This document shows, in pieces, positions 24,257 to 63,505 of a stretch of 64,000 nucleotides of DNA. The notes under the pieces are model-generated. The model worked only from the letters and a program-made list of their open reading frames with translations. It had not been told where the DNA came from and made no database searches. The stretch is from contig JAXMBV010000036.1 in the NCBI GenBank assembly GCA_046349695.1, forward strand, positions 5,713-69,712, written 5' to 3'. Within the stretch, counting starts at the first letter, position 1, and each line of letters begins with the position of its first letter. The position numbers and the translations under genes are program-made. Source of the DNA: Planctomycetaceae bacterium (GTDB lineage Bacteria; Planctomycetota; Planctomycetia; Planctomycetales; Planctomycetaceae).

Positions 24257-24312
24257 GACCTACTCCAGGATATCGGATTGCTTCTGCACTTTATTGATGT
24301 CTGCGGCAGAGG

Positions 24313-48600: not shown

Positions 48601-48900
48601 GTTGCCGGCGATCGTATATTTGGATGGATCGACACCAGCATCCACGGATGTCCATGTACCAGCGCTGAGTTCCAGGCTGACCGCCTGCACGGCGCCAGAA
48701 CCGAAGTCCACATTTCCGCCGTTCTTGATCGTCAGTGTTTCTGCACCCGAAAGATCAATTCCGGTCGCCGCGACGGAAGCGTTGAAGACGCGTCGGTCTT
48801 CAAGCTGCATAAAGCGCACAGGTCGAGTTGCCAACTGAGGTCTTGCAAAGAAGCGGGAGAAGACTCGCCGAATGAACTGGAAAATCAATTTTGTGATCAT
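39622..48900 (-). CDS. giant (3092 aa) beta-helix/adhesin-like surface protein with internal 266-aa tandem repeats
   Basis: ATG start. The N-terminus contains 'RFMQLEDRRVFNASVA'. Most of the protein is low-complexity, T/G/N/A/S-rich beta-helix-like repeats ('GNITLNVDAGDLTINN', 'GGSVTFNADTLV'). There are 5 copies of a 266-aa unit, the last partial. The C-terminal ~600 aa are non-repetitive, with a Pro-rich linker. Confidence 0.9.
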   Translation of the reverse strand: MITKLIFQFIRRVFSRFFARPQLATRPVRFMQLEDRRVFNASVAATGIDLSGAETLTIKNGGNVDFGSGAVQAVSLELSAGTWTSVDAGVDPSKYTIAGNTLTMDATLLQDGGPLLNGSNILEIRGSDAASDHLILNLDQLDFIPTGGISFVGGEGAGDNDSLVITGYTISDPDANSQTADVTVNHTGTETGSVVLSGIGTVAFDEIEPLTLSGTAADLVINLPNAADANVVLSDDGVNASVSRIDGSSFELTDFANPTNSLTINDGGNVKTISIQGLDPNFSADLTLNDDAGLNNTVNFETNNTDLGDGNLLVSADTIHINRAILTKGGSVTFNADTLVDSDANGDITTSAAADSGIASGFIDINVSGAGTVDLNGDLITEGADHSAGNGSSGGAVTIDTANGTIAVALIRTDGGDDTSNGFTGGNAGSIGITSGGAQSTTLRASIFAVEGTGNTDGVGGNVLFASDAILNANIAVNAGNGNVTFTGAVDADAAANNRTLAVNSTGATLFSTAVGAAQALGSLTTNAGGTVSLQNVTTSGIQSYGENATLNGTYATTNAAFSVGGTTTLAGNTTVSTGNADVTFSNTMNGTTSGNQNLTITAGTGSVAFNGAVGGTTRLGVIDINSANNVTAVAITAAALNQDAGSGTTTLNGAVNTNTAAGVTLTGTNLAVNQAITTTANGIVTLNHTGTTNIAAAGDINADGAVSITANGGITTAGDITTSNDTITLNASNAGANLTITGGTMTSNGALISLLAGNNISLGGSVNSGAGNVLVQTPNGSITDGNGAATNISGTNATLTATTGSVGATSADVFKGVFDPVEVALTGNLTANAGGAVAVGGTIAGTQTITAQTAYFEATDLNVSGSAFNVKNLAIVLSGTLTIADGGLTVAPPILGDAPGDLRIEAANVEAVTANNPVIIGTAGKRFERVQYEVATANDEIVDVYSNQLDVNTNTSIQLRVFGNTQFTDLDCDLTSLNTNNRTAIIDAQAAAITQGNATGAVVGTTTNDKILSQSLLLLGSGPFTLNHQNNDVTTIAGSVANSVSYRDANGLVVGTISSLFPVAATVGLQTTANNGNITLNVDAGDLTINNVVTAHGSGNVTLSAAGNVAIGALVSSTSGNIAVTADSDASTAGAITDTLAGETANLSTTGTATLSAATGIGSADDIDTTIGSLVATNTTSGNINIQESNGLTIAGTGVRTLAGNGNISIDVDAGNLIVDPAAQTTSSAPAVAGANQIQVNSTVGMVVGQTIVISDADSNQETFTITAIAGNLVTLSANLATNMATNADVVTGGVLAHGSGNILLNTDAGSATLNAPVRSTTGNITVSADAVNQNSSISTGGAGAISVTADTTAITMADRTVSSATNGIITYTALTNVALSQLSNTSDINVTATNGAISDNTALELSNLVTPAGRATLTAATGIGSAGGVADIDTTIGSLVATNTTSGNINIQETNGLTITGSGVQTQNGNGNISIDVDAGNLIVDPAAQTTSSAPAVAGANQIQVNSTVGMAVGQTIVISDADSNQETFTITAIAGNLVTLSANLATNMATNADVVTGGVLAHGSGNILLNTDAGSATLNAPVRSTTGNITVSADAVNQNSSISTGGAGAISVTADTTAITMADRTVSSATNGIITYTALTNVALSQLSNTSDINVTATNGAISDNTALELSNLVTPAGRATLTAATGIGSAGGVADIDTTIGSLVATNTTSGNINIQETNGLTITGSGVQTQNGNGNISIDVDAGNLIVDPAAQTTSSAPAVAGANQIQVNSTVGMAVGQTIVISDADSNQETFTITAIAGNLVTLSANLATNMATNADVVTGGVLAHGSGNILLNTDAGSATLNAPVRSTTGNITVSADAVNQNSSISTGGAGAISVTADTTAITMADRTVSSATNGIITYTALTNVALSQLSNTSDINVTATNGAISDNTALELSNLVTPAGRATLTAATGIGSAGGVADIDTTIGSLVATNTTSGNINIQETNGLTITGSGVQTQNGNGNISIDVDAGNLIVDPAAQTTSSAPAVAGANQIQVNSTVGMAVGQTIVISDADSNQETFTITAIAGNLVTLSANLATNMATNADVVTGGVLAHGSGNILLNTDAGSATLNAPVRSTTGNITVSADAVNQNSSISTGGAGAISVTADTTAITMADRTVSSATNGIITYTALTNVALSQLSNTSDINVTATNGAISDNTALELSNLVTPAGRATLTAATGIGSAGGVADIDTTIGSLVATNTTSGNINIQETNGLTITGSGVQTQNGNGNISIDVDAGNLIVDPAAQTTSSAPAVAGANQIQVNSTVGMAVGQTIVISDADSNQETFTITAIAGNLVTLSANLATNMATNADVVTGGVLAHGSGNILLNTDAGSATLNAPVRSTTGNITVSADAVNQNSSISTGGGAHDSLAAIAAQNATTITLQNSLGFEPGQQVRIGNAIDSDVLTIVSMAGNTLTLSGGLSNLNAQGTEVTVVSELSVIQVTADNGAIVMKTNASTTSKGSISYTTTSATSGDITLEKLSTSGKLIQISAARDVVIGNASSGTLEATTGTTTGVETITITAGRNIRISSGSSISTDGDPTPGQSESSSNDHLTLLAKGEDATNALGTVTFDGVVTIRTDGGVATTFERRPDPNGGADPRAFFNYPANPIAAVVTTNSSNTYTATFDIVIRTPGEENLRLDIDWRDINADGGSVRVESITVQPGMQSVSHEYSFNDLNAFIQSGQNSFLVDFSVSHHNSIQVLGDTIEQGAFSTAVGVGAVTGLAFNSGLLSSTDNSSTGTEGPITGATVVNRTAAVLLDLTLSNTDFYFEGGTVRVTIPTLALAPLPRPEPPQPPTYAPQVAPTIVAPTISALTVSQPESVFVEVVATPSVDIYQLRFAGSTEPIKKFENIPDGANLLHPELLRQWILDNKLNEGSTLELWQITTKEDAEGNKITVERPLLQFDNDPVNSRPFPANESALPEVIPELKLVPMDPNEATGEQAPTDGSSTTAPDSNPTSQIDQDQTPAIPAEGQLTPNRSPVEVSETPALADPQNSLEPEQQIVASSLMLGMMVSQAIRKGDGKSHRRVSSRLSSLVSKSLKNNSDSK
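41679..45288 (-). repeat. ~4.5 tandem copies of a 798-bp (266-codon, in-frame) unit inside the giant adhesin gene
   Basis: Unit boundaries are 41679, 42477, 43275, 44073 and 44871. The ORF-track translations of all frames are identical at +798 offsets (e.g. 42610, 43408, 44206). The three central copies look identical by eye. The copy at 44871+ shows the first mismatches near 45150 and degrades to about 80% identity after 45288. Confidence 0.95.
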
Positions 48901-49362
48901 TTGTCCATTTTCCTTGGGCCGTTGGCAGCATCCCTGGACGACGCGGAGAGATCGTGCTGGACGGAATCTCTAACAAAATCGGTTCGGATCGCGGGGGTAG
49001 ATCAACAGAAAGAGCCGCACGAGAGAATAACCGCGTTGATCACCCATGGGGATGTAAAACTCTTTCGATTTTTCCGTTTTGGTAGTCTCGGTAGAAAGGT
49101 CCGGGCGTCCACTCAGGACGCAATTGCCGTCCGAATCAAACAGCGAAATCCCTGCAACCTGACCGATCGTAACTGTCGAAACCTCTGAGGTGGGTATCTG
49201 TTTGGTCACAACCTTTCTGGATTCGATTGCAGTGTGACCGATCCACGCTTTGATTAAGCATTTGGCGACTGAGGGTCTTGTTCTCATCCCAGTTCAATTT
49301 GGGATAAGCGGAACTCTGTCAACAATTGGAAGCGAGAAGTCTGCAGGGAGGTATGCCTCGTG

Positions 49363-50466
49363 ATGTTCAAAAAGAACTCTCTTCTCATCCTTTGTCTTTC
49401 TTCACTTGCAGCTCCATCATTCGGTGGTGACTTGCTTCAGAAGAGTGGTGCGGAGGGGCAAAAGCCGAAGACTTCTGAGGCTTTTCGTGAAGACTGCGCA
49501 GTGGTTCCGGTGAGTTGGCTGGTTCCAGAAACTCGCCAGAAACTCGAAGGCAAACCTTCGACTGCGGGCGTGGAGTTTTCCGCTTTTGATATTTCGGTGC
49601 TTTCGATCACCAATTATGCGCCGGAGGCCACTGCTCAGCCGTCTGCAGTTGTTTCACGTGAAGTGCTGGATGAGCTTGAAGGGCTGCTGAAAGACACGAA
49701 GCGGGGAATCGCCACGAAATCTCAGCTGGACACCGCCGCAGACAAATCAGAACAAGTCGCGGATGCCGGGCAGGATTATCTTCAGGAACTGGGGGAATTG
49801 GGGAAAGCGGATAGTTCGTGGATCTTGTTGAACAGGCAATATGCAGAGAATGCAAAGTCCGAAGTTGCAAAAGCCGAGCCCTCTTACTTAAGCGAACTTC
49901 GTCAACTCGACAGCCGTATTCACCTCTTGCGACCTCTGGTCGAAAAAAGAGTCCACCATACGGCGCATGTGTCTGCCGGGCGAGAGGCAGGCATCGGCGA
50001 AGAGCGGTCTCTGGCGGCGCTTTTTCCGTCAGTCCGTGAACTGGCAATTGGAACTTCTTCGAAGGCAATTCGACTTCCAGCCGACTCTGGTCACGGAATC
50101 GACTACTTAAGCGGCCCTTCACCCAGCTATTACTACACACCGGTGCGGTATTCCGTTTCGCGACCGAATCGAATGCTCTACCCATTTCGAAATAACCCGC
50201 TGTATTTTGAAGATCCGAATCTTGAGCGTTGTGGAATCTCCAGGGGATGTCTGACCGAAGTTTCTTCAGCCGGACTCTTCATGTTCAATACTGTGATTCT
50301 TCCTTATCGAGTGGCGGCTCAGCCTCCATGCGAATGTGTGCCATCTCTTGGTGACTGTCCCACCTGCAACGAATTTGATTCGACTGCTGCACTGCCGCCT
50401 TGGTCATGGCGGGGTGTGGTTGCTGAGGCGGGTGTGATTACAGGGCTGGTCTTCATCATTCCGTAG
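49363..50466 (+). CDS. secreted hypothetical protein
   Basis: ATG 49363 lies 12 nt after gggagg. The signal peptide is MFKKNSLLILCLSSLAAPSFG. There is a Cys cluster near the C-terminus (CECVPSLGDCPTCNEF) and a hydrophobic C-terminal tail. No family was recognised. Confidence 0.6.
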   Translation: MFKKNSLLILCLSSLAAPSFGGDLLQKSGAEGQKPKTSEAFREDCAVVPVSWLVPETRQKLEGKPSTAGVEFSAFDISVLSITNYAPEATAQPSAVVSREVLDELEGLLKDTKRGIATKSQLDTAADKSEQVADAGQDYLQELGELGKADSSWILLNRQYAENAKSEVAKAEPSYLSELRQLDSRIHLLRPLVEKRVHHTAHVSAGREAGIGEERSLAALFPSVRELAIGTSSKAIRLPADSGHGIDYLSGPSPSYYYTPVRYSVSRPNRMLYPFRNNPLYFEDPNLERCGISRGCLTEVSSAGLFMFNTVILPYRVAAQPPCECVPSLGDCPTCNEFDSTAALPPWSWRGVVAEAGVITGLVFIIP

Positions 50467-52659
50467 TCACGTGCGGAAGGCAAACGCATGGCTGAGAAAC
50501 CGCCATGCCCAGCCCACGAGTGATCGCGGGCGAGAATCAAGGCGAACAGCCCCGGCTGAATAGAGCACATGTTGTGCTGCCGGGGGCTGCAGTTTGATGG
50601 TCGCCCGAAAGCTTGTTTCAGCCGGCTGCATGGCGTTACCTGGGGCCGTGGGAATCAGTCGGTGAATCAGCAGTTCGCGGTCGAGTGATTCAATTTTTTC
50701 TCCGCTGATATCCTCAAGCTGGCCCTGAATGGGATTGTCGGGACTCGACAACAGTCGCACTGTGGCCGATGTTCCTTTTTCCAGCAGCTCAAGAGACGCT
50801 TCTTCGACCACCGCGGAAACACGGACGTCTTGTTCTGAACCGATCCAGCAGAGAAGTGTTTGCTGCTCTATCCATGCACCCTGATTCCGTTTGTCCAGCG
50901 GACAGTGCGACCACTGCTGTGGTGAATCGGGGCCCTGAGTCTCTGGTGGACGATTCCTGGGCATCCAGACAATACCATCCCGAGGACTGCGAATCTCAAG
51001 GCCAGCCGACAGCTCTTTCAAAGTTTCAAGTCTTGATCTGGCTGAGACAATAGACTGTTCTGCTGCGGTGATTGCTCCAGCCGCTGAGGAGTCTCTCAGG
51101 CGAAGCAGCTCAAGGTTCGAAAGCTGGACCTTCTTCAAAGAGATTTCACCCTCCAGTTCCTCGATCTGAAACGCCAGTTCGTCATTTCTGAGTCTTGCAA
51201 TCAGGTCGCCGGCTTTGACTCTTTCACCACTCGAAATGGCGTTGACAATAGAACCACTCACAGTCACAAAGACTGGTGTTGAGTTCCCGGGAGTGATCAC
51301 ACAGGGCGCTTTGACCGGAAGAGAGATTGGTGTCAGGCACAGAAAACCCATAATTGTGGCTATGAGAATCAGCCGCAGGCTGACTTTGCGATGTGACATG
51401 GCCGCATTGTACGCGGACTTAACTTCGGTGCGAAACATAGAGACGATGCCCCAGATCAGTGATATGGCAGGCAGAGCAGCAAAGAACTGCAGTCCCCACG
51501 GCTTTAGTGCAACATAAATGAACACAACAAGTGCCAGTGTGACGCTGAGACGATACGTTCCGCACGCTATCCCCCAAATTGCCAGCGCGGAGTCAGCAGC
51601 CGGGCTGCGGAAAGACACTGGTGGAGTTGACCCCAGGGCCAGCCATCGAAACATCCTGCCGGCAGACTGGCGGCCCTCTGATGCCAGATTTGGAATTCCA
51701 ATGAGGTCGGAGAGCACGTAGTAACCGTCGTAACGAAGCAGTGGATTACCGTTGACGAGCAGCGTGTTCATTGAACACAGCAGCATGACATTCAGGAAGT
51801 AGCTGTGCAGTAATCCCGGGTTGCTGAAAATCCAGAGAATTCCACAAACAACGGCGACCGCCATTTCGACAAAGATGCCGGCGAATGCGATTGTCATGCG
51901 ATGGCTGCGAGTGCTCATTGTCCACGAGTCGGTCACATCGCAATAGGGGATGGGAAATACAAGAACCCAAAGTACACCCAGTTCGTGGCATTCTCCTCCA
52001 AAATGGTAACAGGCCAGCGCATGTCCCAGTTCGTGCAGTATCTTCACAAGGGTTGCGGTCAGCGTGACATAGATTACATTCTGGAATGTCAGCAAACTGC
52101 TGATTGCCGGTAATTCAGTAATAAGCTGCTGCCATTTTCCAGACAGAAGCAGAGTTGTGAGACCGGCCGCTGCGACAATGATCATCAGTGATAATGAACT
52201 AAAGATCCATTTTAGCCGTGGGTGCAGGATCTTAAGAACGGGGGTCGGGTCGATACCCCTCCAGCGAAAACTCAGCCGCAACGGCAGCATGAGCCAGGCG
52301 GGGAGTGAAGAGGAATTCATGTTCTGGTTAGCGAGGATCTTTCCGTAGCCAGGCGCGGTTGCTGCCATGACGCCGGCATGAATGGCCATCTGCAGAAGCC
52401 TGAGCAGAGTGCTGCGAGAACAGTCTGCTCCGGGAAAATCCAAGGCGAGCTGACAGGAAAGCTCCTCTATGGTCCGCTGACCGTTGCAGAGCTTCAGGAA
52501 AGCGAGTCCCTCGGTGGACACGAAGAAGTATGTGAGTCTTATTGGATCCTTGATAATCCAGTCGTGATCTGTTTTGTCCCTGTCGCGAACGTACAGCAAG
52601 TCAGACCTCAGCCGCCACCTGAGCGGAGTGCTGGTGCTGCCTTGTTTCGCAGTGTTCAT
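50467..52659 (-). CDS. M50 (site-2-protease-like) intramembrane metalloprotease fused to a HlyD-type periplasmic adaptor domain
   Basis: ATG start. An N-terminal PqqD-like module has 'LAFLKLCNGQRTIEELSCQLALDF'. The region is multi-TM and carries HELGHALACYH (HExxH) and 'NGNPLLRYDGYYVLSD' (NxxPxxxxDG). The C-terminal 'GDLIARLRNDELAFQIEELEGEISLKKVQLSNLELLR' is a lipoyl/coiled-coil adaptor pattern. Confidence 0.8.
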   Translation of the reverse strand: MNTAKQGSTSTPLRWRLRSDLLYVRDRDKTDHDWIIKDPIRLTYFFVSTEGLAFLKLCNGQRTIEELSCQLALDFPGADCSRSTLLRLLQMAIHAGVMAATAPGYGKILANQNMNSSSLPAWLMLPLRLSFRWRGIDPTPVLKILHPRLKWIFSSLSLMIIVAAAGLTTLLLSGKWQQLITELPAISSLLTFQNVIYVTLTATLVKILHELGHALACYHFGGECHELGVLWVLVFPIPYCDVTDSWTMSTRSHRMTIAFAGIFVEMAVAVVCGILWIFSNPGLLHSYFLNVMLLCSMNTLLVNGNPLLRYDGYYVLSDLIGIPNLASEGRQSAGRMFRWLALGSTPPVSFRSPAADSALAIWGIACGTYRLSVTLALVVFIYVALKPWGLQFFAALPAISLIWGIVSMFRTEVKSAYNAAMSHRKVSLRLILIATIMGFLCLTPISLPVKAPCVITPGNSTPVFVTVSGSIVNAISSGERVKAGDLIARLRNDELAFQIEELEGEISLKKVQLSNLELLRLRDSSAAGAITAAEQSIVSARSRLETLKELSAGLEIRSPRDGIVWMPRNRPPETQGPDSPQQWSHCPLDKRNQGAWIEQQTLLCWIGSEQDVRVSAVVEEASLELLEKGTSATVRLLSSPDNPIQGQLEDISGEKIESLDRELLIHRLIPTAPGNAMQPAETSFRATIKLQPPAAQHVLYSAGAVRLDSRPRSLVGWAWRFLSHAFAFRT

Positions 52660-52679
52660 CGCGGCTCCGAAATTCTCTG

Positions 52680-53804
52680 CTATCTGTTGGTTTGCGACTG
52701 TGAGATCGCAGGGCTTGTGTCGATCCAGAGCTGGACTCTCAATCCTGGACGAAGCCTAAGCTCGGTGTTGGGGATCTCTGCGCGGACAAGCACCTGCCTG
52801 TTGGAATCTACTTCAGGGCTGATGAAAGTCAGTGTTCCCACGACCTCGCGAGTTTCGCCCCCAGTTACGGCAATGAGCGGGGCCTTTTGTCCCGGTTTCA
52901 GCAGGTGAGCCTCTTCTGCGTCGACAAAACCCTCCGCGTGAAGTTGTTTCAGTCCAACGATTCGAAGGACCGCTTCGCCTGCTTCTGACCATTCGCCAAG
53001 ATGTTTCTTTTCCTCAACGATGATTCCGTCAAACGGTGCCTTGAGCCGCCGTTTCTCCAGTTTCGCGGCAGCAAGCTCGACCAACTTTTCAAGGCTTTGA
53101 AGCTCCAGTTTCTCGAGTTCGCGGAGCGTCTTTTCTTCGGCCAGCTGATTCTCAAGGCGAGACACCGCAGCCTGTTGTTGTGACACGAGTGCTGCCTTGC
53201 TTTTTGCTCGCATGCCCGCAAGGTCATGTTCAACAATGGCACGTTGAGTGGAGATCTGTTTTTTCGCAAAATCGTTCTGAACCTTCTCCCACTCTTCCTC
53301 TGAGACACTCAGGCGTGAGAGTTGCCGACTGGAACGGTCCCTTTCAAGCGTACCGTTGGCGAGTTCTTCTTCTTTTCTTGCCAGTTGGATGCCCGAATCA
53401 TCCTGGGCTGAACGTGCAGCGATCGAAGCTTCTTCCATAGCCTGAGCCAGAAGGAACCTGGCTTCATCCAGCGAAGCCTGAGCCGTTTCCACAGCACGGC
53501 TTCCTCTGGATTTGGCTTCAGCAATTTTCAGATCCAGTATTGCGGCTTCATGTGCCAGCTTTGCTTCCTGGTCGTCGAGAGATCCCAGCTCCTGACCAGC
53601 CGTCACCATTGTGCCTGCCGACACTGCCAATCGTATCAGGTGTCCCCTTTCGAGAGCTGGAATCTGCGCCTGATCTTTGATCGCGAGGAAAGGTGTTTTC
53701 ACATCAATTTTCTGGCTTCGCGTTTCCTGCTGGGCGATGCCAATGTTGCACGACACCAATACTATGGTGACAGCAACTCGGTGCATCAGAAGGCTGATTC
53801 TCAT
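52680..53804 (-). CDS. HlyD-family periplasmic adaptor protein
   Basis: Signal/anchor MRISLLMHRVAVTIVLVSCNIGIAQ. A lipoyl-like motif 'GTMVTAGQELGSLDDQEAKLAHE' is followed by a long coiled coil and a beta-barrel end ('LRPGLRVQLWI'). The gene ends 20 nt upstream of the M50 fusion gene. Confidence 0.8.
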   Translation of the reverse strand: MRISLLMHRVAVTIVLVSCNIGIAQQETRSQKIDVKTPFLAIKDQAQIPALERGHLIRLAVSAGTMVTAGQELGSLDDQEAKLAHEAAILDLKIAEAKSRGSRAVETAQASLDEARFLLAQAMEEASIAARSAQDDSGIQLARKEEELANGTLERDRSSRQLSRLSVSEEEWEKVQNDFAKKQISTQRAIVEHDLAGMRAKSKAALVSQQQAAVSRLENQLAEEKTLRELEKLELQSLEKLVELAAAKLEKRRLKAPFDGIIVEEKKHLGEWSEAGEAVLRIVGLKQLHAEGFVDAEEAHLLKPGQKAPLIAVTGGETREVVGTLTFISPEVDSNRQVLVRAEIPNTELRLRPGLRVQLWIDTSPAISQSQTNR

Positions 53805-53836
53805 ATGCCAGTTTCTCCAGTGTCAATGAGCCGCAG

Positions 53837-55654
53837 TTACAGGAACAGCTTCTGAGTGAGATATTCAGAGACGTGTCGGAAACAGACGTATCCGAGTGAC
53901 CGTTTCCCACAGTGAATTCTCCCCGTTACACCAGTCCCCGGTCGTTCCGTACCTGACGGAGCCTGTGGAAGCCCCGCAATAACTTCCGTGAACAGGGTGC
54001 CGTTGGAGTCAAGCTCAGTGGTTCTTCCAATCGACGATACGGGGACCGTGACATATTCTCCCGGACGGGTTGCGAGAGCATAGGTGACCATCGGATGTCC
54101 GTCGCTGGTCTGTGCGGATGTCATCAAATGATCGATATCTGCCTCGCTGACCCGAAGCCGCAGTTCCCAGTTGGAGTCCAGTTCGGCGATCTCACAAAAA
54201 TACTGGCCTCGAACGACGGGACGTCCCAGAAACCTCTCCCTGAGACCGCTGCCAAAGAGTTTGCCGCGAATCGGACTTCTAACCTGCAGATTCGAGAGAC
54301 GAGTCTTCAAAAAGATCAGCTGCCGTTCCAGTGCTTCGACTCTGGCAGTGAGTTCAGAGTGCTCAGTGGTGAGGAGCGGATCGCGTGATGTTTCGCGACC
54401 AATTCGAAGAGATTCAATTGCGGCAAGCCGAGTTCGCGATGTTGCAATCTCGCCCTGCAGAGATTCCAGCTGCACAGCGAGTTCATCATTGCGAAGCTTC
54501 AAAATCAGGGCACCGGCATCCAGCTGGTCGCCATCGTTGGGATGTATCTCACTCACGATTCCATTTTCGGAGGCCCAGACATACTGACGGATGGATGGTT
54601 CCAGTTCTCCGCGTGCTTCAATCGTGAAGTCAACAGGCACCAGCAGAGCGAGAATGACAAGTACGATAGCGCCCACCAGAAGAGAATTGCGGATGCGAGA
54701 TTTTCGCGACAGTTGCCTGCGAAAACGCGTCCACAATGTCGCGTTGCGCTGCTCGATCGTATCGAGGACAGTCGATGCCGCGAGCGCGAGCAGTGTGACG
54801 AGATTCTGATCCGGCAACTGCGTCCTGTTCCATTCGCCAACGAATGCATATTCGCTGTTCTGCCACTGGCCGTTCATGGTCAGCGGCAGGACGCGGACGA
54901 TGACATCCGATTCCAGTTCGGATGACTGACTGATTGCGTTCCGGGCCGCTGCCGGAGCCGATTCATTGTCAGCGCAGGCACGAGATTCAAACTGAGCGAC
55001 CGTCTCCGCAAGTTGCAATGCCGCAGCTGATCTGTCATTTGGCTGTGCGACCGATGTGGCCGCAAGGAGTTTCCATTTTGCCGCAGAGCCCCGACCACAG
55101 ACGGCGATACGCTGACAATTGAGAATCGACGGTCCGTCCGTTGCCAGAATATTCAGAGCCTCGGCCGGAGTGCTTGCCAACTGAAGTGACGTGAGGACCT
55201 GTGACAGAAGCTGGTGCCCCGCCGAGTTCTTTCTGAGTACCGACAGGAGTCCGCGACGGTAGAGGTCGGCAGCAACTTCAACGCACTCCTGGAAATCCTC
55301 TGTTCCAGAGGGCCGGTCAATCAGGATCAGAAGCTGCACTCCAGGCAGCACCTCTGCCAAAAAAGTTTTGAGAGAACTGGATCCAGAACCTGCGGCACGA
55401 CGATTCTGACCCAAAATCTCTGCAACGAACTCCGAGACTTCATCCAGCACGGCCTGGCGACGTGATTGTGGCGCTGCAAAACAAATCTGTCGAACACCCT
55501 CAGGCGAAACTTCTGCGATGTAAATGATCTCTGTTGAGAAGGTCGTCTGAATTTCACTCGCAAACTCACGCAGTAGCGCAAACGGAGTGTTTGCCGAGCC
55601 GGCCCGACTGACCGCTGACGCGAGCATGGCAGAGAGGTCGTAGTGATAGGGCAT
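53837..55654 (-). CDS. HlyD-family adaptor with ~320-aa unassigned cytoplasmic N-terminal domain
   Basis: ATG start. The N-domain family is unknown. The TM segment is LLVGAIVLVILALLV. Then 'DAGALILKLRNDELAVQLESLQGEIATSRTRLAAIESLR' gives a lipoyl/coiled-coil adaptor pattern. Confidence 0.75.
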   Translation of the reverse strand: MPYHYDLSAMLASAVSRAGSANTPFALLREFASEIQTTFSTEIIYIAEVSPEGVRQICFAAPQSRRQAVLDEVSEFVAEILGQNRRAAGSGSSSLKTFLAEVLPGVQLLILIDRPSGTEDFQECVEVAADLYRRGLLSVLRKNSAGHQLLSQVLTSLQLASTPAEALNILATDGPSILNCQRIAVCGRGSAAKWKLLAATSVAQPNDRSAAALQLAETVAQFESRACADNESAPAAARNAISQSSELESDVIVRVLPLTMNGQWQNSEYAFVGEWNRTQLPDQNLVTLLALAASTVLDTIEQRNATLWTRFRRQLSRKSRIRNSLLVGAIVLVILALLVPVDFTIEARGELEPSIRQYVWASENGIVSEIHPNDGDQLDAGALILKLRNDELAVQLESLQGEIATSRTRLAAIESLRIGRETSRDPLLTTEHSELTARVEALERQLIFLKTRLSNLQVRSPIRGKLFGSGLRERFLGRPVVRGQYFCEIAELDSNWELRLRVSEADIDHLMTSAQTSDGHPMVTYALATRPGEYVTVPVSSIGRTTELDSNGTLFTEVIAGLPQAPSGTERPGTGVTGRIHCGKRSLGYVCFRHVSEYLTQKLFL

Positions 55655-56269
55655 GACTCAGAGCTTCCGGTTGGCGATCAGGACCGCTAACTCTGTACGA
55701 GGTGGTTAGTGTGACTCAGTTTCCGCAGGCCACGATGTGCTCATCCCTGAGGCAAGCCAACAACGAGAGCGATGACTCGACAACAAGACGGCAGGTTCCG
55801 TTCAGGCACGGACCATCGACCAATGTTGATCGGAACCACGGGAACGGAAGACTATCCGATTCACTGGCTCTTCAACAAGGGGCCGGACGGCCTACCGGGA
55901 ACGCGTCGTCTGTTTGGGTTTTGTCGCCTGGTATTCTGCTGCAGTTCTCGCCGGTCTGAGGACGGCTACCAGACAAGGTCTGTTGTTTGCCTGACAAAAC
56001 GCGTGTTGTTTCCAGATCGTGGAAACGATGCGTAGATCCGCAGATTCTGCCGAAACGCCTCCGTGAGAGTGCCTTAAGTCGGCCTCAGCATGAGCAACAT
56101 GATAACCAACCGGTTTGAAGCGGGGATTTGGTGTAATCAGTATAGCATTCTGCCGATCTACCCTTGGGGGTACCGATTCTCACAGGGTCAGTATTGACCT
56201 TTTGTGGAATGCAGGTTCACGGATGATGCCTGCTGACTCGGTAAGTTGTCGCGAAATGGATTGTCCAAA

Positions 56270-58663
56270 ATGACAGACCGGATGCTCTACACTGCCGTCG
56301 CCAGGTTGTTTCAGAGTCTTGCGGGCAACAGGCAGGCATTTCGCCGCCGAACGATTGGTGTGTTTTGCACCGCGCTGCTGGCTGGCTGCGCAAACACGAA
56401 TCACCGAGTCGTCGAGAAAACAATTGGAAACGACACGTGCGAAGTCGATTCCATTATGAAGCAGGTGGATAACCCGTCGCCGCCCGTCCCAGGCGACCTC
56501 TTTGGTACAACGAAGCCGGTCTCGGCCATGGCGCTTCGTGAACCTGATAAGATCAGCTATCAGGACATGACTTTGTCATCCGCCCTCTACACGGGGCTAT
56601 CTTATTCAAAAGTGCTGCGCGATATTGGTGGAACGATTCTGAGATCCCCGGATACGGTAGCGACTTCTGTGTCTCGCCAGTTGCAGCAAACAGATCCAAG
56701 GTTTGGGGCCGAGGCTGCTCTGAGCGCCTTTGATGCTCAACTTGCTGCGCGGGCGAATTTCAATCAAAACGACCGTCTTTATAACAACAGCTTTTTCGCC
56801 GGCGGTACCAGAGCATTCAATCAGGATTACAACGACTACACACTCGAGCTTTCAAAGCGAACTGCCACAGGCTCGTTGATGGCTCTCCGTGGTGTTTCAA
56901 ACTATGACAGTAATAATGCCCCTGCGAATACATTCTACAGTGCGTGGGACTCGTGGCTTGAAGGGGAATTGCGCCAGCCGCTGCTTCAGGGAGGCGGTTT
57001 GGAGTTCAACCGAATTGCCGGTCCAGGGTCAACACCTGGCGTTTACAACGGCGTGCTGATTGCCAAGGTCAACAGCGATATCACGGATGCTGAATTCCAG
57101 ACGGCGCTGCGAGACTACATCAGCAACGTCGAAAATGCCTACTGGGACCTCTACCTGGCCTATCGCGAATACGACGCACGCAAGAATGCATTTGAGGGAG
57201 TGAAGGCTCGCTTTGAGGAGAAGAAAAAGGGGGGGCAGACTGATGAAGTTGAGTTTGTTCTGCTGCAGCAGCAAATGTACCAGCTGAAGACGGAAGCAGA
57301 TGACGCTCTCTTTGGTCGACTGCTGACAGGAACGCAGGTGCGAAACGGATCGACTGGTGGCACGCTGCAGTCTGGTGGCGGGGTCCTTGGAGCCGAACGT
57401 CGCCTGCGGTTACTAATTGGTTTGCCAGTATCAGAACAAAGTGTCCTGCGCCCGACGGAAGATCCAACGACGGCGGAAGTGAAATTTGACTGGGAATCAG
57501 CCATTCAGGAAGCGCTGACCCAGCGTCCGGAGCTTCAGAAACAGAACAACGCAGTTAAGAAACGAGAACTTGAGCTGGTCGCAGCTCGGAATTTTCTCAA
57601 CCCACGGCTCGATGCTGTTGGACGATATCGATTCCGCGGCTTCGGCAACGACCTGATCGCCGATGGTAACCAGCACAACGGCGTGGGAGCGCCAGTGTCT
57701 TCCGTCGGAAACCTGATGACTGGAGACCAGCAGGAATGGGCTGTGGGTGTCGAGTTGACAGTTCCGCTTGGTTACCGGAAGGCTCACGCGGCGGTCTCTC
57801 ATGCAGAATTGAATCTTGCTCGGGAGAGAATGATCCAGAAAGAACAGCAGCGAGAAATTCTGAGCAACCTGTCCGGTGCATTCACCGATGTTGAACGAAC
57901 CTACGCGGCGATGGAAACGAGCCTGGATCAGTATCTGGCGGCGAGAAAATACCACGAGTCGATTCAGGCTCAGGTGGAAGAGGGAAAGAACGTCCTTGAG
58001 GATCGAATCCTCGACGGATATCGCCGTATGGTGCTTGCCGAAGTTCAGTTCTTCCGAGCACGTGCCGAGTACGCGATTGCTTTGAAGAACTTCCATTACG
58101 AAAAGGGTTCATTGCTGGATTACAAGGACCTGCGGATGGCGGGTGGTCAGATGGCGATGGGCGATTCAGCCATCCCTCAGGATGACCAATTCAACAGTTC
58201 GGTGAGCGTTGGCGAACCTCAGTCCAGTGAGGAAGAAGCAGAGTCGGGCGTTGCTTTCGATGAGGGAGCGACCGGGTTCGAGGATCCCCAGGCTGATAGC
58301 GCTGCAGCAGAGTCCAGTGTTGAAGAGAACGAAGAGGGGGTGCGATCGGCCAGCGCAGAAGTCTCACCCGAGGAGAAGAATCGAGGCATTCGCTCAGTGG
58401 CAAACGGATTTGTCTCCTCTCTTCCGAAGTTTCGGCGTCAGAAGCCAGCCGAAGCAGCCCCGGGGGCAGAACAGTCTTCCGACTCAGACACTGACGAGGA
58501 ATCTGCTGTTGACGAGATTCCGTCTATTCACTTCGAAGAAGTACCGGCGGATTCAGTGGAGCCGAAGTCTGGTTTTGCGAAACTGGATCTCAGCGGTGAT
58601 GCTGACGAACCCGCAGACAGCGAAGTTGAATCTGAAGGTGGTTTTGAACCTGAGCAGGAATAG
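56270..58663 (+). CDS. TolC/NodT-type outer-membrane factor lipoprotein with long acidic C-terminal tail
   Basis: The lipobox is 'FCTALLAGCANT'. There are two OEP-like repeat halves ('NVENAYWDLYLAYREYDARKNAFE', 'AEVQFFRARAEYAIALKNFHYEKGSLL'). The last ~175 aa are E/D/S-rich and low complexity. The ORF is open from TTG 56246; ATG 56270 is preferred. Confidence 0.8.
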   Translation: MTDRMLYTAVARLFQSLAGNRQAFRRRTIGVFCTALLAGCANTNHRVVEKTIGNDTCEVDSIMKQVDNPSPPVPGDLFGTTKPVSAMALREPDKISYQDMTLSSALYTGLSYSKVLRDIGGTILRSPDTVATSVSRQLQQTDPRFGAEAALSAFDAQLAARANFNQNDRLYNNSFFAGGTRAFNQDYNDYTLELSKRTATGSLMALRGVSNYDSNNAPANTFYSAWDSWLEGELRQPLLQGGGLEFNRIAGPGSTPGVYNGVLIAKVNSDITDAEFQTALRDYISNVENAYWDLYLAYREYDARKNAFEGVKARFEEKKKGGQTDEVEFVLLQQQMYQLKTEADDALFGRLLTGTQVRNGSTGGTLQSGGGVLGAERRLRLLIGLPVSEQSVLRPTEDPTTAEVKFDWESAIQEALTQRPELQKQNNAVKKRELELVAARNFLNPRLDAVGRYRFRGFGNDLIADGNQHNGVGAPVSSVGNLMTGDQQEWAVGVELTVPLGYRKAHAAVSHAELNLARERMIQKEQQREILSNLSGAFTDVERTYAAMETSLDQYLAARKYHESIQAQVEEGKNVLEDRILDGYRRMVLAEVQFFRARAEYAIALKNFHYEKGSLLDYKDLRMAGGQMAMGDSAIPQDDQFNSSVSVGEPQSSEEEAESGVAFDEGATGFEDPQADSAAAESSVEENEEGVRSASAEVSPEEKNRGIRSVANGFVSSLPKFRRQKPAEAAPGAEQSSDSDTDEESAVDEIPSIHFEEVPADSVEPKSGFAKLDLSGDADEPADSEVESEGGFEPEQE

Positions 58664-58745: not shown

Positions 58746-59729
58746 TCAGGACCAGAGTCGTTTTCCGGCTGCGATTGACTGTGCCAGTTCCACAAAGGCG
58801 GCACGACGTGCCGGCGCCTTTTCCGGCGACTTGATGACCGATGCGAGGATCACCGAACCGCTGATTGCTTTACCCGGGAGTTCCGGTCCAGGTGGCACCG
58901 CTGGGGCATTCGGGGGAGCCATGCTGCCGTGTGACCAGAAGACCGCAACTCCCGCCCATGCCGCGGCTGTGTTCATTTCTGTGGACTGTGCTAACTCCAT
59001 GATCTTTCGACGCAACGGTTCAGACGGCGCCTTGACCCAGTCAGTTACCTGAGCGATGAGATCGGGATCCTTTGAATCCCTGGCTGCATCGGCCGCTTCA
59101 ATGCAACCAATAGCCCACCAGATCCCAAGTCGCTTCGGGAGAGCCCTCGAAAGAAACTCAAGTGCGTCGTTGTCGGCCCCTTCTTTCAGGCATCTCTGGG
59201 CAAAGGCTTCACAGGTTTCAGTTTCGTGGGGTCTGAGAGTTATGACTTTGCCGAGCTGAAACTGCGCGATGATCTCGGCCGCTCCAGGAACGACAAAACC
59301 CTCCGATCGCAGGCAATCGGCTGGAATTTCTTCTGCTTTGTCCGGCTTCGCACTGTGCTGGTGCTTCGTTTCAGAAGTAACTTCTTTGCGAACAACAGTG
59401 CTGGCAACCTGTGGTGGCGCTGCAGCAGTGCCGCCATCAAGCTCGACAGACAACGTGGTATTGCCACACAGTAGCTTGTCGCCCGGCTTTATGGTGCCTC
59501 TGGTGACCGGTTCCGCGTTGAGAAACGATCCATTAGTGCTCTGCAGGTCTTCGAACTGTAGTTCGGTTCCATGCACACTCAGCCGAATATGGCGTCCCGA
59601 CATCAAGTCATCATCAGGAAACGTCAGGTCAGCAGTCGGAGTTCTGCCGACCACGATCTCCTGACCAGCAGACAAGACGGCAATGTCGCGAAACTCTCGC
59701 CCTGTCTGGACTCTCAGGAACCATCTCAT
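58746..59729 (-). CDS. FHA-domain protein (T6SS Fha/TagH-like) with unassigned C-terminal domain
   Basis: ATG 59729 has a GGAG ~10 nt upstream. The FHA core is 'VVGRTPTADLTFPDDDLMSGRHIRLSVHGTELQFEDLQSTNGSFLNAEPV...GDKLLCGNTTLSVE'. The gene lies directly downstream of vgrG on the same strand. Confidence 0.8.
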   Translation of the reverse strand: MRWFLRVQTGREFRDIAVLSAGQEIVVGRTPTADLTFPDDDLMSGRHIRLSVHGTELQFEDLQSTNGSFLNAEPVTRGTIKPGDKLLCGNTTLSVELDGGTAAAPPQVASTVVRKEVTSETKHQHSAKPDKAEEIPADCLRSEGFVVPGAAEIIAQFQLGKVITLRPHETETCEAFAQRCLKEGADNDALEFLSRALPKRLGIWWAIGCIEAADAARDSKDPDLIAQVTDWVKAPSEPLRRKIMELAQSTEMNTAAAWAGVAVFWSHGSMAPPNAPAVPPGPELPGKAISGSVILASVIKSPEKAPARRAAFVELAQSIAAGKRLWS

Positions 59730-59910
59730 CTTGAAAACTCCAAGCTTGTCTGCTGGATGCGGAAGCGACCGGATGCCGTTCAGCAGCAATCGGAGCGATT
59801 TTTCGTGATCTTGCTGAACGCGGCTGCCAATGATAACCGGAACGCCCGCAAAAATGCCACGCAGTCAGCGACAGACATTGCCGCTCAGAGTTCGCACCTA
59901 ATTCTGAGCA

Positions 59911-61986
59911 TCAGTTGATCATGGTGATTCCGCCTTTGACGGTCAGCATCCCATCGCCCTTAACTGTCGTCATGGGGGCTGCGACTTCGGCCATCGCTTT
60001 TCCGGTGACCTTGACCATGATGCCCTCAAGCGTGATTCCGCTCTGATCAATCTTGATGCTGTTGGCACCGACCTTGAGTTCTATCCCCTGCATCGCTTCT
60101 GTGCTGCTTTTTCCAAGACTCAGTTTTGTTGTCTGGTTCCCCATTTTGATCTGGGTGTCCTGGTTGCCCATTTTCAATGTCGTCGTTTCGTTCCCCATGT
60201 CCAGAGTTCGCTCGGAATTGCCCATCTTCATCACGACCGACATGTTCCCCTGCTCGATGATGAGTGAGTCATTTCCTGTCTTGAGGGTCACGTTGCGGTC
60301 CTTGAAAATCTCCACGGTCTGGCCTCCACCTTTGGAACCCACACCGATTTTGACTTTCTGATCGTTATAGATGTCAATTTCCTGATCCCCTTTATCTTTA
60401 TCTTCGTAGCCGACCTTGCGAGTTTCATTGTTTTCGATCACGCAGTTAAAGTCCTTTTCTGCATGAACGTAGAACTCTTCGTTGTCCTTTTTGTCTTCGA
60501 AGCGGATCTCATTGAAGTTCTCTGAGCTGCCATCCTTCGAACTTCTCGATTTGATGCCGGACTGCGTTGCGTTGTCGGGCAATGTGTACGGCGGCATATT
60601 TTCGGCGTTGTACAACATCCCTGTAATCACGGGACGATCCGGATCACCTTCCAGAAAGCTCACAAGGACTTCCTGACCGATGCGAGGGATGTGGATCATG
60701 CCCCACTGCTTCCCGGCCCAGGGCGTTGAAACTCGAACCCACATGCTGGTCTTCTCGTCTTTTTTGCCCTTGCGGTCCCATGGGAACTGAACTTTCACTC
60801 GGCCATATTTGTCGGTGTAGATCTCTTCGCCACTGGGACCTGTCACGATGGCGGAATGCAGTCCCATGACCCTTGGTTTGCCTCTCTGACGAGGTGGGCG
60901 AAAGACCGTCTTGGCTGGGATGACACGGAATCGATTGGAATAAATCTGATCCGAATGAGAACCACCGGAAAAGTAGTTCCCCCCAACGTTGGCATGATGC
61001 TCGACCGTCGTCAGCACCCATTTCCCACCCTGCTCCGCCGCATCGTGATGTTTTTTCAGTTCAAAGCGACCACCTGGGGAAAACGAGCGACATTCGCTGC
61101 TGCCGGTCGCATGTTCATGAGAGCATTCTTCTTCTTCAATGCGCAGTGTTGTGAGCGCGTCGCCATCACCCTTTTTGAGGTAGTCACCGGGAAAGTCGTA
61201 GAACTCAAGGCTTGTGTTGCCCCTGAGCGACACCACGCTGGATTTCTGAGCCAGGAGTGAAGTAGACGGTGTTTCAAAGTTGTAGTCGGAAAGAGCAAAT
61301 TTCCCTGAGGTGAAATCGTATTCGTGCGACCACTCAGACAAGTTGTCGGGCAACTCCGAAATGGCCATGTTGGCCGCAAGCTGCACGTCTTTGTCCTTTA
61401 CGTCGTATGCGCCATCGGCATGATCGGAGAAGACGATAGTGTGTTTGCTCTTCTCGTGGAGGAAGTAATAGTAAATACCCTCTTCTTCCAGCAGGCGACT
61501 GACAAAGTCAAAATGCGTTTCGCGGTACTGAACACAGTACGTGCGTTTGACCAGCGTGCGCTTGAGCTTCCACTGAAAGTCGGTAATCCCGAGGTCAGTC
61601 AGCAGGGCGCTGACGATTTGCTTCACGTCCTGCTTTTCTTCTGATTCATGAACTCGACAGTCGGAACCGCGGGTGAGCAGCCAGAACTTTGGAACAACAT
61701 GCGCCTGATACATGTGAGCACGATCGCCCTTGCCTGCGTATGCGAACGAATTCACAATACCATTGAACCAGCGTTCTGACTCGTCGGCGTGGCGAACATG
61801 GAAGCTGACGGGAGTGCCGACAATATCCTTGGCCTTGATGCCGCCGGTCTCGGAGAGCATCCTTAACGTAAAGCTGAACAGCCCGGACAGCCGTTCTTCG
61901 CCGTTAAAGGCCATCAGAACAAGCTTGTCTTTACCCAATGCGGTTTCAACCGCGATGGGCCGATTTTCCTGACTGAAGGTAGGCAT
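59911..61986 (-). CDS. vgrG: T6SS spike protein VgrG (TssI)
   Basis: 'RFRVIPAKTVFRPPR', 'VTGPSGEEIYTDKYGRVKVQFPWDR' and 'WVRVSTPWAGKQWGMIHIPRIGQEVLVSFLEGDPDRPVITG' are hallmark gp27/gp5 OB-fold blocks. The C-terminus has beta-helix repeats 'MGNxxTxxKMGN'. There is no extension domain. Confidence 0.92.
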   Translation of the reverse strand: MPTFSQENRPIAVETALGKDKLVLMAFNGEERLSGLFSFTLRMLSETGGIKAKDIVGTPVSFHVRHADESERWFNGIVNSFAYAGKGDRAHMYQAHVVPKFWLLTRGSDCRVHESEEKQDVKQIVSALLTDLGITDFQWKLKRTLVKRTYCVQYRETHFDFVSRLLEEEGIYYYFLHEKSKHTIVFSDHADGAYDVKDKDVQLAANMAISELPDNLSEWSHEYDFTSGKFALSDYNFETPSTSLLAQKSSVVSLRGNTSLEFYDFPGDYLKKGDGDALTTLRIEEEECSHEHATGSSECRSFSPGGRFELKKHHDAAEQGGKWVLTTVEHHANVGGNYFSGGSHSDQIYSNRFRVIPAKTVFRPPRQRGKPRVMGLHSAIVTGPSGEEIYTDKYGRVKVQFPWDRKGKKDEKTSMWVRVSTPWAGKQWGMIHIPRIGQEVLVSFLEGDPDRPVITGMLYNAENMPPYTLPDNATQSGIKSRSSKDGSSENFNEIRFEDKKDNEEFYVHAEKDFNCVIENNETRKVGYEDKDKGDQEIDIYNDQKVKIGVGSKGGGQTVEIFKDRNVTLKTGNDSLIIEQGNMSVVMKMGNSERTLDMGNETTTLKMGNQDTQIKMGNQTTKLSLGKSSTEAMQGIELKVGANSIKIDQSGITLEGIMVKVTGKAMAEVAAPMTTVKGDGMLTVKGGITMIN

Positions 61987-62026
61987 CGCACAGCTCCGTG
62001 GCTGACAGTGGAAAGTTCATCTGGAA

Positions 62027-62088
62027 CATGAAAACGCTGCACTCGCCGGAAAGGACGGTTGAATGCCCTTTCCTGTGACTGCAGCGTT
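62027..62088 (-). terminator. hairpin (possible partial terminator/attenuator) between hcp copy 1 and vgrG
   Basis: On the minus strand: AACGCTGCAGTCACAGGAAAGG-...-CCTTTCCGGCGAGTGCAGCGTT followed by TTTTC. It is related to the terminators after hcp copies 2 and 3 but has a shorter U tract. Confidence 0.45.
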
Positions 62089-62111
62089 GGCTTTTTGTGG
62101 ATGCAGGACGC

Positions 62112-62597: not shown

Positions 62598-62762
62598 TAG
62601 TAACTCCTTTGAGTGACGAGTTTTTCTATGAATCTTCGTGGCTCAAGCGGTTGTGAGCCCGTATCTGAGATCATTGTCTTGCGGAACGAAGTGACGGTTG
62701 CCAGTTTTTTGCCGTTTTTGGGCAGAAATCTCAAAGCGAGCCGATGCCACGTGCTTTTACGC

Positions 62763-62817
62763 AAAGAAAAAACGCTGAATTTCCCTCCGAGATCCTCGTG
62801 AAGGAAATGTCAGCGTT
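62763..62817 (-). terminator. intrinsic terminator after hcp copy 2
   Basis: On the minus strand: AACGCTGAcATTTCC...GGAAATTCAGCGTT followed by TTTTCTTT. The site is 37 nt after the stop at 62854. Confidence 0.75.
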
Positions 62818-62853
62818 TGGCGATGTTCTGGCGGTGCCCTCGTGTCAGCAGGT

Positions 62854-63339: not shown

Positions 63340-63505
63340 TGGTAACTCCCTTGTGAATCGGATTTCTTTACGTGACTTGCTCAGGCTTGCACTGTTGCAA
63401 GCCACTGTCTGGTACTATTCTCTTGGGGAACGTTTTGGCGGTTGTCAGTTTTTTGAAGTTTTCAGGTTGAATTTTCAAAGCGAGCCGACGTCGCCATCTG
63501 CTGTG

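Follow-up and report, generated by a model that had tools for sequence, protein, structure and literature searches.

A conserved gene cassette of periplasmic adaptors, an M50 protease and a TolC-like protein as a candidate export apparatus for giant proteins in Planctomycetaceae

The gene cluster and its proteins

The subject of this work is a cluster of four genes for envelope proteins, found in a 64,000-nucleotide stretch of DNA (hereafter the window) of a Planctomycetaceae bacterium (assembly GCA_046349695.1, contig JAXMBV010000036.1, positions 5,713 to 69,712). According to the listing of open reading frames (ORFs), three of the genes form a minus-strand operon (53837-55654, 52680-53804 and 50467-52659, with intergenic gaps of 32 and 20 bp), and a TolC-like gene (56246-58663) diverges from it on the plus strand. 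Further downstream of the operon lies the gene of a giant repetitive protein. We favour the interpretation that the four envelope proteins make up an unusual export apparatus with the giant as its cargo. The best homologs were found in Planctomyces, Planctomycetaceae and Fuerstiella genomes. The main features are, in window coordinates:

56246-58663, plus strand: TolC/NodT-like outer-membrane factor lipoprotein, 805 aa (Pfam OEP, lipobox, orthologs)
53837-55654, minus strand: GAF-like cytoplasmic region, one transmembrane segment and a periplasmic adaptor, 605 aa (TIGR01843; GAF via homologs)
52680-53804, minus strand: lipoprotein periplasmic adaptor, 374 aa (HlyD_3, RND_mfp, lipobox)
50467-52659, minus strand: fusion of a predicted RRE/PqqD-fold domain, an M50 core and a periplasmic adaptor, 730 aa (motifs, profiles, AlphaFold2, Foldseek)
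52357-52623, minus strand: predicted RRE (RiPP recognition element)/PqqD-fold domain of the fusion (AlphaFold2 fold, Foldseek)
51325-52272, minus strand: M50 intramembrane metalloprotease core of the fusion (HELGH and NPLLRYDG motifs)
50470-51324, minus strand: periplasmic adaptor domain of the fusion (HlyD_3, Foldseek)
39622-48900, minus strand: giant protein rich in T, A, G, N and S and containing repeats, 3092 aa, the proposed cargo (leader, linkage to the cassette)

An interpretation made earlier from the sequence alone (the original prediction) described three HlyD-type adaptors and a divergent TolC-like lipoprotein, with no transporter of the ATP-binding cassette (ABC), resistance-nodulation-division (RND) or major facilitator superfamily (MFS) families beside them. 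Both parts of this description were borne out. The four ORFs lie where they had been placed, and all three adaptors gave profile matches of the HlyD type, a family built of lipoyl, alpha-hairpin and beta-barrel domains, the score of the 605-aa protein being below the cutoff. In the whole 64-kb window there is no ABC signature, no ABC, RND or MFS gene and no other polytopic transporter-like ORF. A scan for promoters and terminators gave counts at chance level.

The 374-aa protein matched HlyD_3 (E 5e-20, 72.7 bits) and, above the cutoff, RND_mfp (99.5 bits), and carries the lipobox LVSC at aa 16-19. The 805-aa outer-membrane factor matched Pfam OEP (76.5 bits) in two stretches, which correspond to two OEP repeats, and is of the NodT type, with the lipobox LAGC at aa 45-48. 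Its orthologs, 38-73% identical, are divergent from the cassette in 13 related loci. The C-terminus of this protein is an extremely acidic low-complexity tail of ~170 aa (58148-58660), which is unusual among TolC-family proteins.

The 605-aa protein matched type_I_hlyD (TIGR01843) over aa 326-456 with E 3e-10, below the cutoff. Its first 320 residues (54695-55654) gave no direct profile match, in agreement with the original prediction, which had described a cytoplasmic domain of this size as unassigned. That term no longer applies, since the region appears GAF-like through its homologs: Pfam GAF was matched by 9 of 14 aligned homologs of the N-terminal region (best E 7e-10), GAF domains were the top PDB matches of the N-terminal profile, and the counterparts in Methylosinus (5e-13) and Pseudosulfitobacter (2e-12) matched GAF directly. 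Judged from these comparisons it is a divergent GAF-like region. It must be noted that word-indexed homolog searches with the 605-aa adaptor and with the N-terminus of the giant yielded 5-6 matches, and the homologs were taken from the related loci instead.

The 730-aa fusion consists of a small beta/alpha domain (aa ~13-101), a polytopic core (~130-445) and a periplasmic adaptor (~446-730). It has the marks of the M50 family, i.e. HExxH in a transmembrane helix, a downstream zinc-ligand motif of the NxxPxxxxDG type and a polytopic core. HELGH (aa 209-213, 52021-52035) and NPLLRYDG (aa 305-312, 51724-51747), which the original prediction had reported as intact, were invariant across 33 homologs of the fusion. 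[quoted passage not shown] The E. coli ortholog of the fusion scored 34.7 bits with Pfam Peptidase_M50 (PF02163). HlyD_3 matched the window protein above the cutoff (27 bits), and in the AlphaFold2 model (alignment of 33 sequences, pLDDT 83), which contains an N-terminal domain of beta strands and three helices, a helical core (aa 139-442) and a C-terminal adaptor, the C-terminal part matched MacA, MexA, EmrA and AcrA with Foldseek E values of 1e-13 to 1e-10. In a library of 50%-identity cluster representatives 3,386 proteins matched the fusion at E<=1e-30. A second motif, GGECHELG (51976-51999), lies 8 residues past HELGH; its Cys, His and Glu are invariant in the planctomycete homologs and partly retained in Proteobacteria, and the motif may represent an additional site, either for a metal or structural.

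For the N-terminal domain of the fusion a PDB profile search gave PqqD (5sxy) as the top match at E 0.77, and PqqD was matched by 5 of 18 homologs (best E 2.3e-4). The AlphaFold2 model of aa 1-128 (pLDDT 83) has a three-stranded sheet followed by three helices, as in a winged helix. Its top Foldseek match in the PDB was again 5sxy, with a target-normalised TM-score of 0.65, followed by the leader-bound RREs TbiB1 (5v1v, 5v1u), the lasso protein B1 (6jx3) and the PbtF RRE (8t19). Because this model retrieves PqqD and RREs, and because with 28.7 bits the ortholog from Methylosinus lies above the cutoff of Pfam PqqD, we assign the predicted domain to the RRE/PqqD fold.

The first 45 residues of the giant (48766-48900) form a leader of non-Sec type. 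The N-terminus (MITKLIFQFIRRVFSRFFARPQLATRPVRFMQLEDRRVFNAS) is without a Sec-type hydrophobic core, and the leader ends in MQLEDRRVFNAS (aa 31-42), reading LEDRRVFNAS, where by-eye alignment with the proteobacterial giants described below puts LEDRRVF in register with LEPRxLL. The C-terminus consists of a weakly hydrophobic segment and a basic tail. There are no RTX GGxGxD motifs in the protein. Four tandem repeats of 266 aa (798 bp) are 97-100% identical at the amino acid level, and a fifth copy is ~70% identical (42211-45402); they were located by a script, their period being beyond the limit of Tandem Repeats Finder. The repeats coincide with strong GC skew at 42-46 kb.

Conservation of the cassette and its neighbours

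A pattern scan with one genome per species revealed at least 586 loci encoding a relative of the M50-adaptor fusion, all of them planctomycetal. The gene neighbourhood was surveyed in 48 loci of at least 15 kb (related loci carry labels such as L001-L102), in which ORFs were called and labelled by BLAST against the window proteins. The usual core is a gene for the GAF-adaptor followed by those for the adaptor and the M50-adaptor fusion on one strand; a minority of the loci is without one of the upstream genes. None of the 48 loci had a conserved ABC, RND or MFS gene within 10 kb on either side. The survey, which had been suggested by the original prediction, thus revealed that the adaptor trio without a pump is conserved and not a local accident; orthologous clusters that consistently hold an ABC or RND transporter were not found.

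In a neighbour-joining tree the fusion proteins fell in two groups. Clade A, which includes the window, usually adds the divergent outer-membrane factor gene, a convergent gene with a PLYFE motif (see below) and a giant gene downstream. A downstream giant bearing the leader was present in 17 of the 26 clade-A loci that had long flanks. The leader of the linked giants is near-constant, with ~32 residues and then LE[DEQT]RRVLN. In a reverse test, starting from the giant, five homologs were found; two of them were on contigs of sufficient length for the neighbours to be visible, and both lay directly downstream of a cassette and a small convergent gene. Clade B, mostly from Pirellulaceae, is without the clade-A extras, and has instead a small conserved downstream gene for a DUF3467 protein, which is conserved both in the clade-B planctomycete and in the alphaproteobacterial versions of the cluster. 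The protein (...YANFCRVTGSPEELIIDFGLNPQP...) is encoded at L030:12430-12834 and in ~20 other clade-B loci, as well as at L092:9678-9974 and L089:5699-6019, and is absent from the window.

Full-length homologs of the fusion were also detected by tblastn on plasmids of Proteobacteria (24-27% identity over aa ~13-650, E 1e-43 to 1e-52), and none of the eight annotated proteobacterial modules had an ABC, RND or MFS pump gene. On an E. coli IncF plasmid (NZ_CP081687.1, 44829-64580; L087, L090) five genes bordered by IS5 and IS1 encode a giant of ~4459 aa, annotated as "Ig-like domain-containing protein", a TolC protein, a short adaptor, a mid-sized adaptor and an M50-adaptor, with no ABC gene among them. 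The plasmid is from strain 0H23, and its M50-adaptor is WP_001192442.1. Of 5,426 complete E. coli genomes 24 contained this module, for the most part on a plasmid, and Citrobacter plasmids carry it too; it appears to be a mobile, self-contained unit. The gene order is the same in Variovorax (giant of ~16,200 aa), Azospirillum and Niveispirillum. In Thalassospira (~4,000 aa), Pseudosulfitobacter (~12,900 aa) and Methylosinus (~8,800 aa) the giant is followed by DUF3467, a GAF-adaptor, an M50-adaptor, in some cases SapC, and then a short adaptor and TolC. NCBI labels the Thalassospira and Pseudosulfitobacter giants "LEPR-XLL domain-containing protein"; the Methylosinus giant is annotated as LamG-like and has LEPRVLL at its N-terminus. 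The giants beside homologous cassettes in Proteobacteria share the pattern LE(P/S/A)RxL(L/F), and the N-termini compared are:

Window giant: ...RFMQLEDRRVFNAS
E. coli: ...RFALESRQLFDGAA
Thalassospira: ...HVEPIEPRILLSAD
Pseudosulfitobacter: ...KMEALEPRFLLSAD
Methylosinus: ...IFDTLEPRVLLNAD
Variovorax: ...RAMALEARYMFDAA

The C-termini of these giants are not conserved and RTX repeats occur in some of them only, therefore the N-terminal motif appears to be the sole feature common to the cargo candidates. On the side of the machinery the sole common feature is the RRE-M50-adaptor fusion, accompanied by two more adaptors and a TolC-like protein. A 2026 preprint on Chlorobium chlorochromatii lends independent support: two giants of this species, Cag_663 and Cag_665, begin with an N-terminus of 24 aa of the LEPRxLL kind and lie on either side of genes for TolC-like and SapC proteins. 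The leader class is not restricted to the cassette-adjacent giant, since in the window an 846-aa protein with SBBP beta-propeller repeats (7329-9869, minus strand) also has a non-Sec N-terminus of the LExRxLL type (...QQLESLEVRSLLTAGW).

A possible source of energy was found in the sister clusters. In the clusters of Methylosinus and Pseudosulfitobacter, the genes that RefSeq calls "prepilin peptidase" encode truncated SecA-like ATPases, which matched SecA_DEAD (E 1e-103), SecA_PP_bind (PPXD) and P-loop_SecA (NBD2), with the wing-scaffold region unmatched; we rejected the RefSeq label in favour of these SecA-domain matches. Genes of this kind lie at L089:10177-12093, L093:15029-17053 and L030:3977-5950 and in seven other planctomycete loci. 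They are encoded in three proteobacterial operons, and Ensifer carries one. In eight clade-B loci of planctomycetes the gene is directly upstream of the GAF-adaptor gene, and three further loci have partial copies next to the cassette. The term pump-less is valid for the ABC, RND and MFS families only, and the obvious candidate for driving the transport is a motor of the SecA type, whether a dedicated or a housekeeping one. The E. coli, Thalassospira and Variovorax modules are without a SecA-like gene.

The other neighbours of the cluster are:

49360-50466, plus strand: partner gene in convergent orientation, 368 aa (with a signal peptide, a conserved PLYFEDPNLERCG and Cys-rich domain at the C-terminus, and a hydrophobic tail)
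33549-39413, minus strand: Ser/Thr kinase with WD40 repeats, 1954 aa, downstream of the giant (Pfam Pkinase, E 1.5e-35, and WD40)
58746-61986, minus strand: FHA-DUF6931 protein and VgrG, next to the outer-membrane factor gene (Pfam and NCBIfam matches)

The 368-aa partner abuts the stop codon of the fusion gene. It had no Pfam or NCBIfam match and belongs to a planctomycete family with the motif PLYFE(D/E)xNLERxG and a C-terminus ending in IIP; a single copy is convergent to and abuts the M50 fusion gene in 17 loci. Similar kinase-WD40 genes follow the giant or the cassette in L001 and L102, and this recurrent neighbour is possibly regulatory.

The position of the cluster between two blocks of type VI secretion system (T6SS) genes had been pointed out in the original prediction. 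The blocks contain FHA-DUF6931, VgrG and Hcp (58746-63405) and TssK, TssL and an IcmF-N-like gene (17168-25956). In four planctomycete loci, namely the window, L004, L041 and L102, T6SS genes lie next to the outer-membrane factor gene or the cassette; the last of these is from the cultured Thalassoglobus neptunius KOR42 (locus around KOR42_40130). The association exceeds chance within Planctomycetaceae, and may reflect co-regulation or cooperation, e.g. of an adhesin with a contact weapon. Cassette and giant are, on the other hand, far more widespread than the T6SS association, so the link is secondary and does not belong to the definition of the system. A consistent co-occurrence, as expected of a T6SS accessory, was not observed, T6SS genes being absent beside most cassettes and from all the proteobacterial modules examined, and a pure accessory role was rejected.

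Function of the cassette and alternative explanations

We think it very probable that the cassette serves the neighbouring giant. As to how it does so, on balance we lean towards the view that the cluster is the planctomycete form of a type-I-like trans-envelope apparatus, which occurs across phyla, works without an ABC transporter and is devoted to giants whose leader is non-Sec and of the LEPR-XLL type. Because the pump-less trio is conserved, the protease motifs and the adaptors hold up and the N-terminus is predicted to have an RRE fold, we regard the M50 membrane domain as the strongest candidate for the component in the inner membrane, and a device coupling proteolytic processing with export as the best-supported reading. 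The original prediction had suggested such a role for the M50 domain with a peptide as substrate; the first part is favoured by our results, the second is not, a leader-bearing giant being the likelier cargo than a small peptide. There is a precedent in the M50 protease EpeP, which is thought to cleave and export its peptide (PMC10885120).

The export could proceed as follows. The 3092-aa giant would be made in the cytoplasm, where its leader would be bound by the RRE/PqqD-fold domain of the 730-aa fusion. At the inner membrane the fused M50 protease would remove the leader or process the N-terminus in some other way. The adaptor domain of the fusion, the GAF-anchored adaptor and the lipoprotein adaptor may form a mixed ring, which would dock on a trimer of the TolC-like lipoprotein to make a duct to the cell surface. 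The GAF region would gate the system upon binding a cytoplasmic ligand. The giant chain would then pass through the duct, driven by a SecA-type motor and perhaps also by extracellular folding. In sister systems the motor would be the truncated SecA-like ATPase of the operon; the window contains no such gene, therefore the motor may act in trans, as housekeeping SecA or as a paralog encoded elsewhere in the genome.

Several observations weigh against this view. Moving a chain of 3092 residues across the inner membrane needs energy, and by tblastn the SecA-like motor gene is absent from the 64-kb window. We know of no M50 protease that functions as a protein translocator. The profile searches proposed in the original prediction matched HlyD_3 and OEP as expected; for the window fusion itself Peptidase_M50 (PF02163) gave 20.7 bits, below the cutoff of 27.2, and PqqD (PF05402) gave 12-13 bits (E 0.12-0.26), below the cutoff of 23.4. 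The RRE/PqqD-like module of the original prediction is therefore supported by the modelled fold, and falls short of the Pfam threshold in the window sequence. Neither Pfam nor NCBIfam had any match in the giant or in its N-terminus, thus its LEPR-XLL label comes from inspection of the motif. An adjacent giant was missing in 9 of the 26 clade-A loci with long flanks and in all clade-B loci, and the recurrent T6SS, FHA and kinase neighbours could indicate a role in signalling. Lastly, what the data show directly is the domain anatomy, the lack of a pump gene, the gene linkage and the common leader motif; leader binding, cleavage, the route through the duct, stoichiometry, the energy source and GAF gating were inferred from sequence, predicted structure and gene context.

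The main rival explanation is retention and release in the manner of LapD/LapG. The giant would be exported by some other route or with its C-terminus first, the RRE-M50 fusion would hold its N-terminus at the inner membrane, and cleavage by the M50 protease, gated by GAF, would free the adhesin. The neighbourhood of an adhesin-like giant, a protease and a cytoplasmic sensor domain is consistent with this, as is the location of the leader at the N-terminus, whereas classical type I cargo exits C-terminus first. The weakly hydrophobic segment and basic tail at the C-terminus of the giant would also fit, and large adhesins such as LapA stall at TolC, as summarised in the giant-gene preprint. We nevertheless consider retention and release unlikely, since no other export route is evident for giants without a Sec signal and without a conserved C-terminal secretion signal or RTX region, and the SecA-like ATPase of the sister operons suggests translocation rather than release alone. 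An ordinary tripartite efflux or type I system, with the M50 protease as an accessory and an ABC, RND or MFS transporter encoded elsewhere, would agree with the way in which adaptors and outer-membrane factors normally function, in company with such a transporter (PMC8277102), and the visible sequence is 64 kb of a genome. The lack of a conserved pump gene in the related loci and the proteobacterial modules, the IS-bounded five-gene unit of E. coli and the SecA-like nature of the ATPase, where one is present, make this explanation highly improbable, and we rejected a relocated ABC or RND pump.

Two further alternatives were considered. Classical M50 site-2 proteases act in signalling by regulated intramembrane proteolysis, and the original prediction had mentioned a signalling conduit. 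In this case the M50 protease would cut a membrane regulator in response to envelope or GAF signals and thereby control the T6SS or the expression of the giant, for which the genes of FHA-DUF6931, VgrG, TssK/TssL and a Ser/Thr kinase around the cassette in the window, L004, L041 and L102 could be cited. It is disfavoured, and improbable in our judgement: cassette and giant have no T6SS beside them in the majority of planctomycete loci or in any of the Proteobacteria examined, there is no conserved adjacent gene for an anti-sigma factor or other regulator substrate, the nearest M50 relatives are RiPP-maturation proteases rather than RseP or SpoIVFB, and the three adaptors and the TolC-like channel would be left unexplained. 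That same kinship to the daptide and YydH/LiaK proteases, the RRE fold, typical of RiPP pathways, and the example of EpeP would be in line with an exporter or maturase of a small leader peptide, the giant being merely a neighbour. We hold this to be quite improbable as well, and rejected a RiPP gene cluster with a small-peptide substrate, because neither a conserved small precursor nor a modifying enzyme was found in the window or the related loci. The precursor gene envisaged in the original prediction did not appear among the small intergenic ORFs of the window (55655-56245 and 48901-49359) either, the small downstream gene of clade B encodes the DUF3467 protein and not a precursor, and the conserved leader motif sits on giants.

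How bacteria export their very largest proteins is largely an open question, and the present results tie the shared LEPR-XLL-type leader to a conserved and apparently undescribed gene set. If export by the RRE-M50-adaptor cassette is confirmed, the trans-envelope machines will be joined by one with a new engine, a role outside signalling and RiPP chemistry will fall to intramembrane M50 proteases and to RRE domains, and there will be a candidate explanation for the exit of planctomycete surface proteins with non-Sec LExRxLL N-termini. Owing to its occurrence on E. coli plasmids the hypothesis can be directly tested in a standard model organism.

Comparison with known systems

In the literature searched, the coverage of which was incomplete, there was no description of an M50-adaptor fusion or of this gene set, and the LEPR-XLL giants were not linked to an M50-adaptor cassette. 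In the accessible part of the Chemical Reviews article on tripartite systems, M50, GAF and Planctomycetes are not mentioned in any relevant way, and the system is not mentioned in a survey of polymorphic toxins or in the giant-gene preprint.

It is instructive to compare the cluster with the type I systems of giant adhesins (LapA-LapBCE with LapD/LapG, SiiE-SiiCDF). There too a giant repetitive surface protein is encoded beside a membrane-fusion protein and a TolC-like factor, in association with a protease and a cytoplasmic sensor. The differences are that our cluster has no ABC transporter and three different adaptors, that the candidate signal is an N-terminal leader, putatively of the LEPR-XLL type, instead of a C-terminal RTX signal, that an intramembrane M50 enzyme joined to an adaptor acts as the protease, and that the sensor is a GAF region fused to another adaptor. 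Of the features of classical type I secretion, the dedicated ABC transporter is missing, the window giant has no RTX repeats, and the C-termini of the giants are not conserved. The tripartite efflux systems of the RND, MFS and ABC kinds have an inner-membrane transporter of these families; none was found in the window, and none is conserved in the 48 loci.

The nearest relatives of the M50 core are the RiPP proteases YydH/EpeP of the Bacillus epipeptides, MpaP of the daptides and TglG/TmoG, and the RRE domain is likewise typical of RiPP systems. These proteases are stand-alone enzymes which act on small peptides and are encoded beside modifying enzymes and usually an ABC exporter, whereas in our cluster the protease is fused to an RRE and a periplasmic adaptor and lies beside a giant protein. 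Peptidase-containing ABC transporters (PCATs), i.e. the fusions of a C39 peptidase with an ABC transporter in class II bacteriocin systems and certain type I systems, are similar in that a leader-recognising protease within the inner-membrane component passes the cargo to an adaptor and an outer-membrane duct. Here an RRE and an M50 domain, without a nucleotide-binding domain, would replace the cysteine peptidase and the ABC ATPase, and the ATPase of the sister systems is separate and SecA-like. Two different adaptors function in one complex in TriABC-OpmH of Pseudomonas aeruginosa, where TriC is an RND pump. The two systems are alike in having more than one kind of membrane-fusion protein per complex, and differ in that ours has three adaptor types and no pump. 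With the LEPR-XLL giants (NCBI; Cag_663 and Cag_665 of Chlorobium chlorochromatii) the window giant shares its large size, the TolC-like neighbour and the lack of a recognised export signal. Their N-terminal motif of ~24 aa, LE(P)RxLL, has a possible counterpart in the window giant, which reads LEDRRVF and gave no match in the NCBIfam library.

Because it has no ABC transporter, the system falls outside the defining test of both the giant-adhesin type I systems and the PCATs. We rate it as a trans-envelope machine of membrane-fusion proteins and an outer-membrane factor in which both the engine at the inner membrane and the signal on the cargo are new, and there is a real chance that it deserves the status of a separate secretion pathway. 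Such a pathway, distinct from a type I variant, would have an RRE-M50-adaptor gate, a SecA-like or housekeeping SecA motor and a duct made of three adaptors and a TolC-like channel. Its special cargo would be LEPR-XLL giants, whose length can reach tens of thousands of residues, and its range would extend from Planctomycetota to Proteobacteria and probably also to Chlorobiota; in planctomycetes the clade-B cassette, with its SecA-like ATPase and DUF3467 protein and without an adjacent giant, could be the general exporter of the many non-Sec LExRxLL proteins. We put forward this wider proposal tentatively, as a serious possibility rather than as our expectation.

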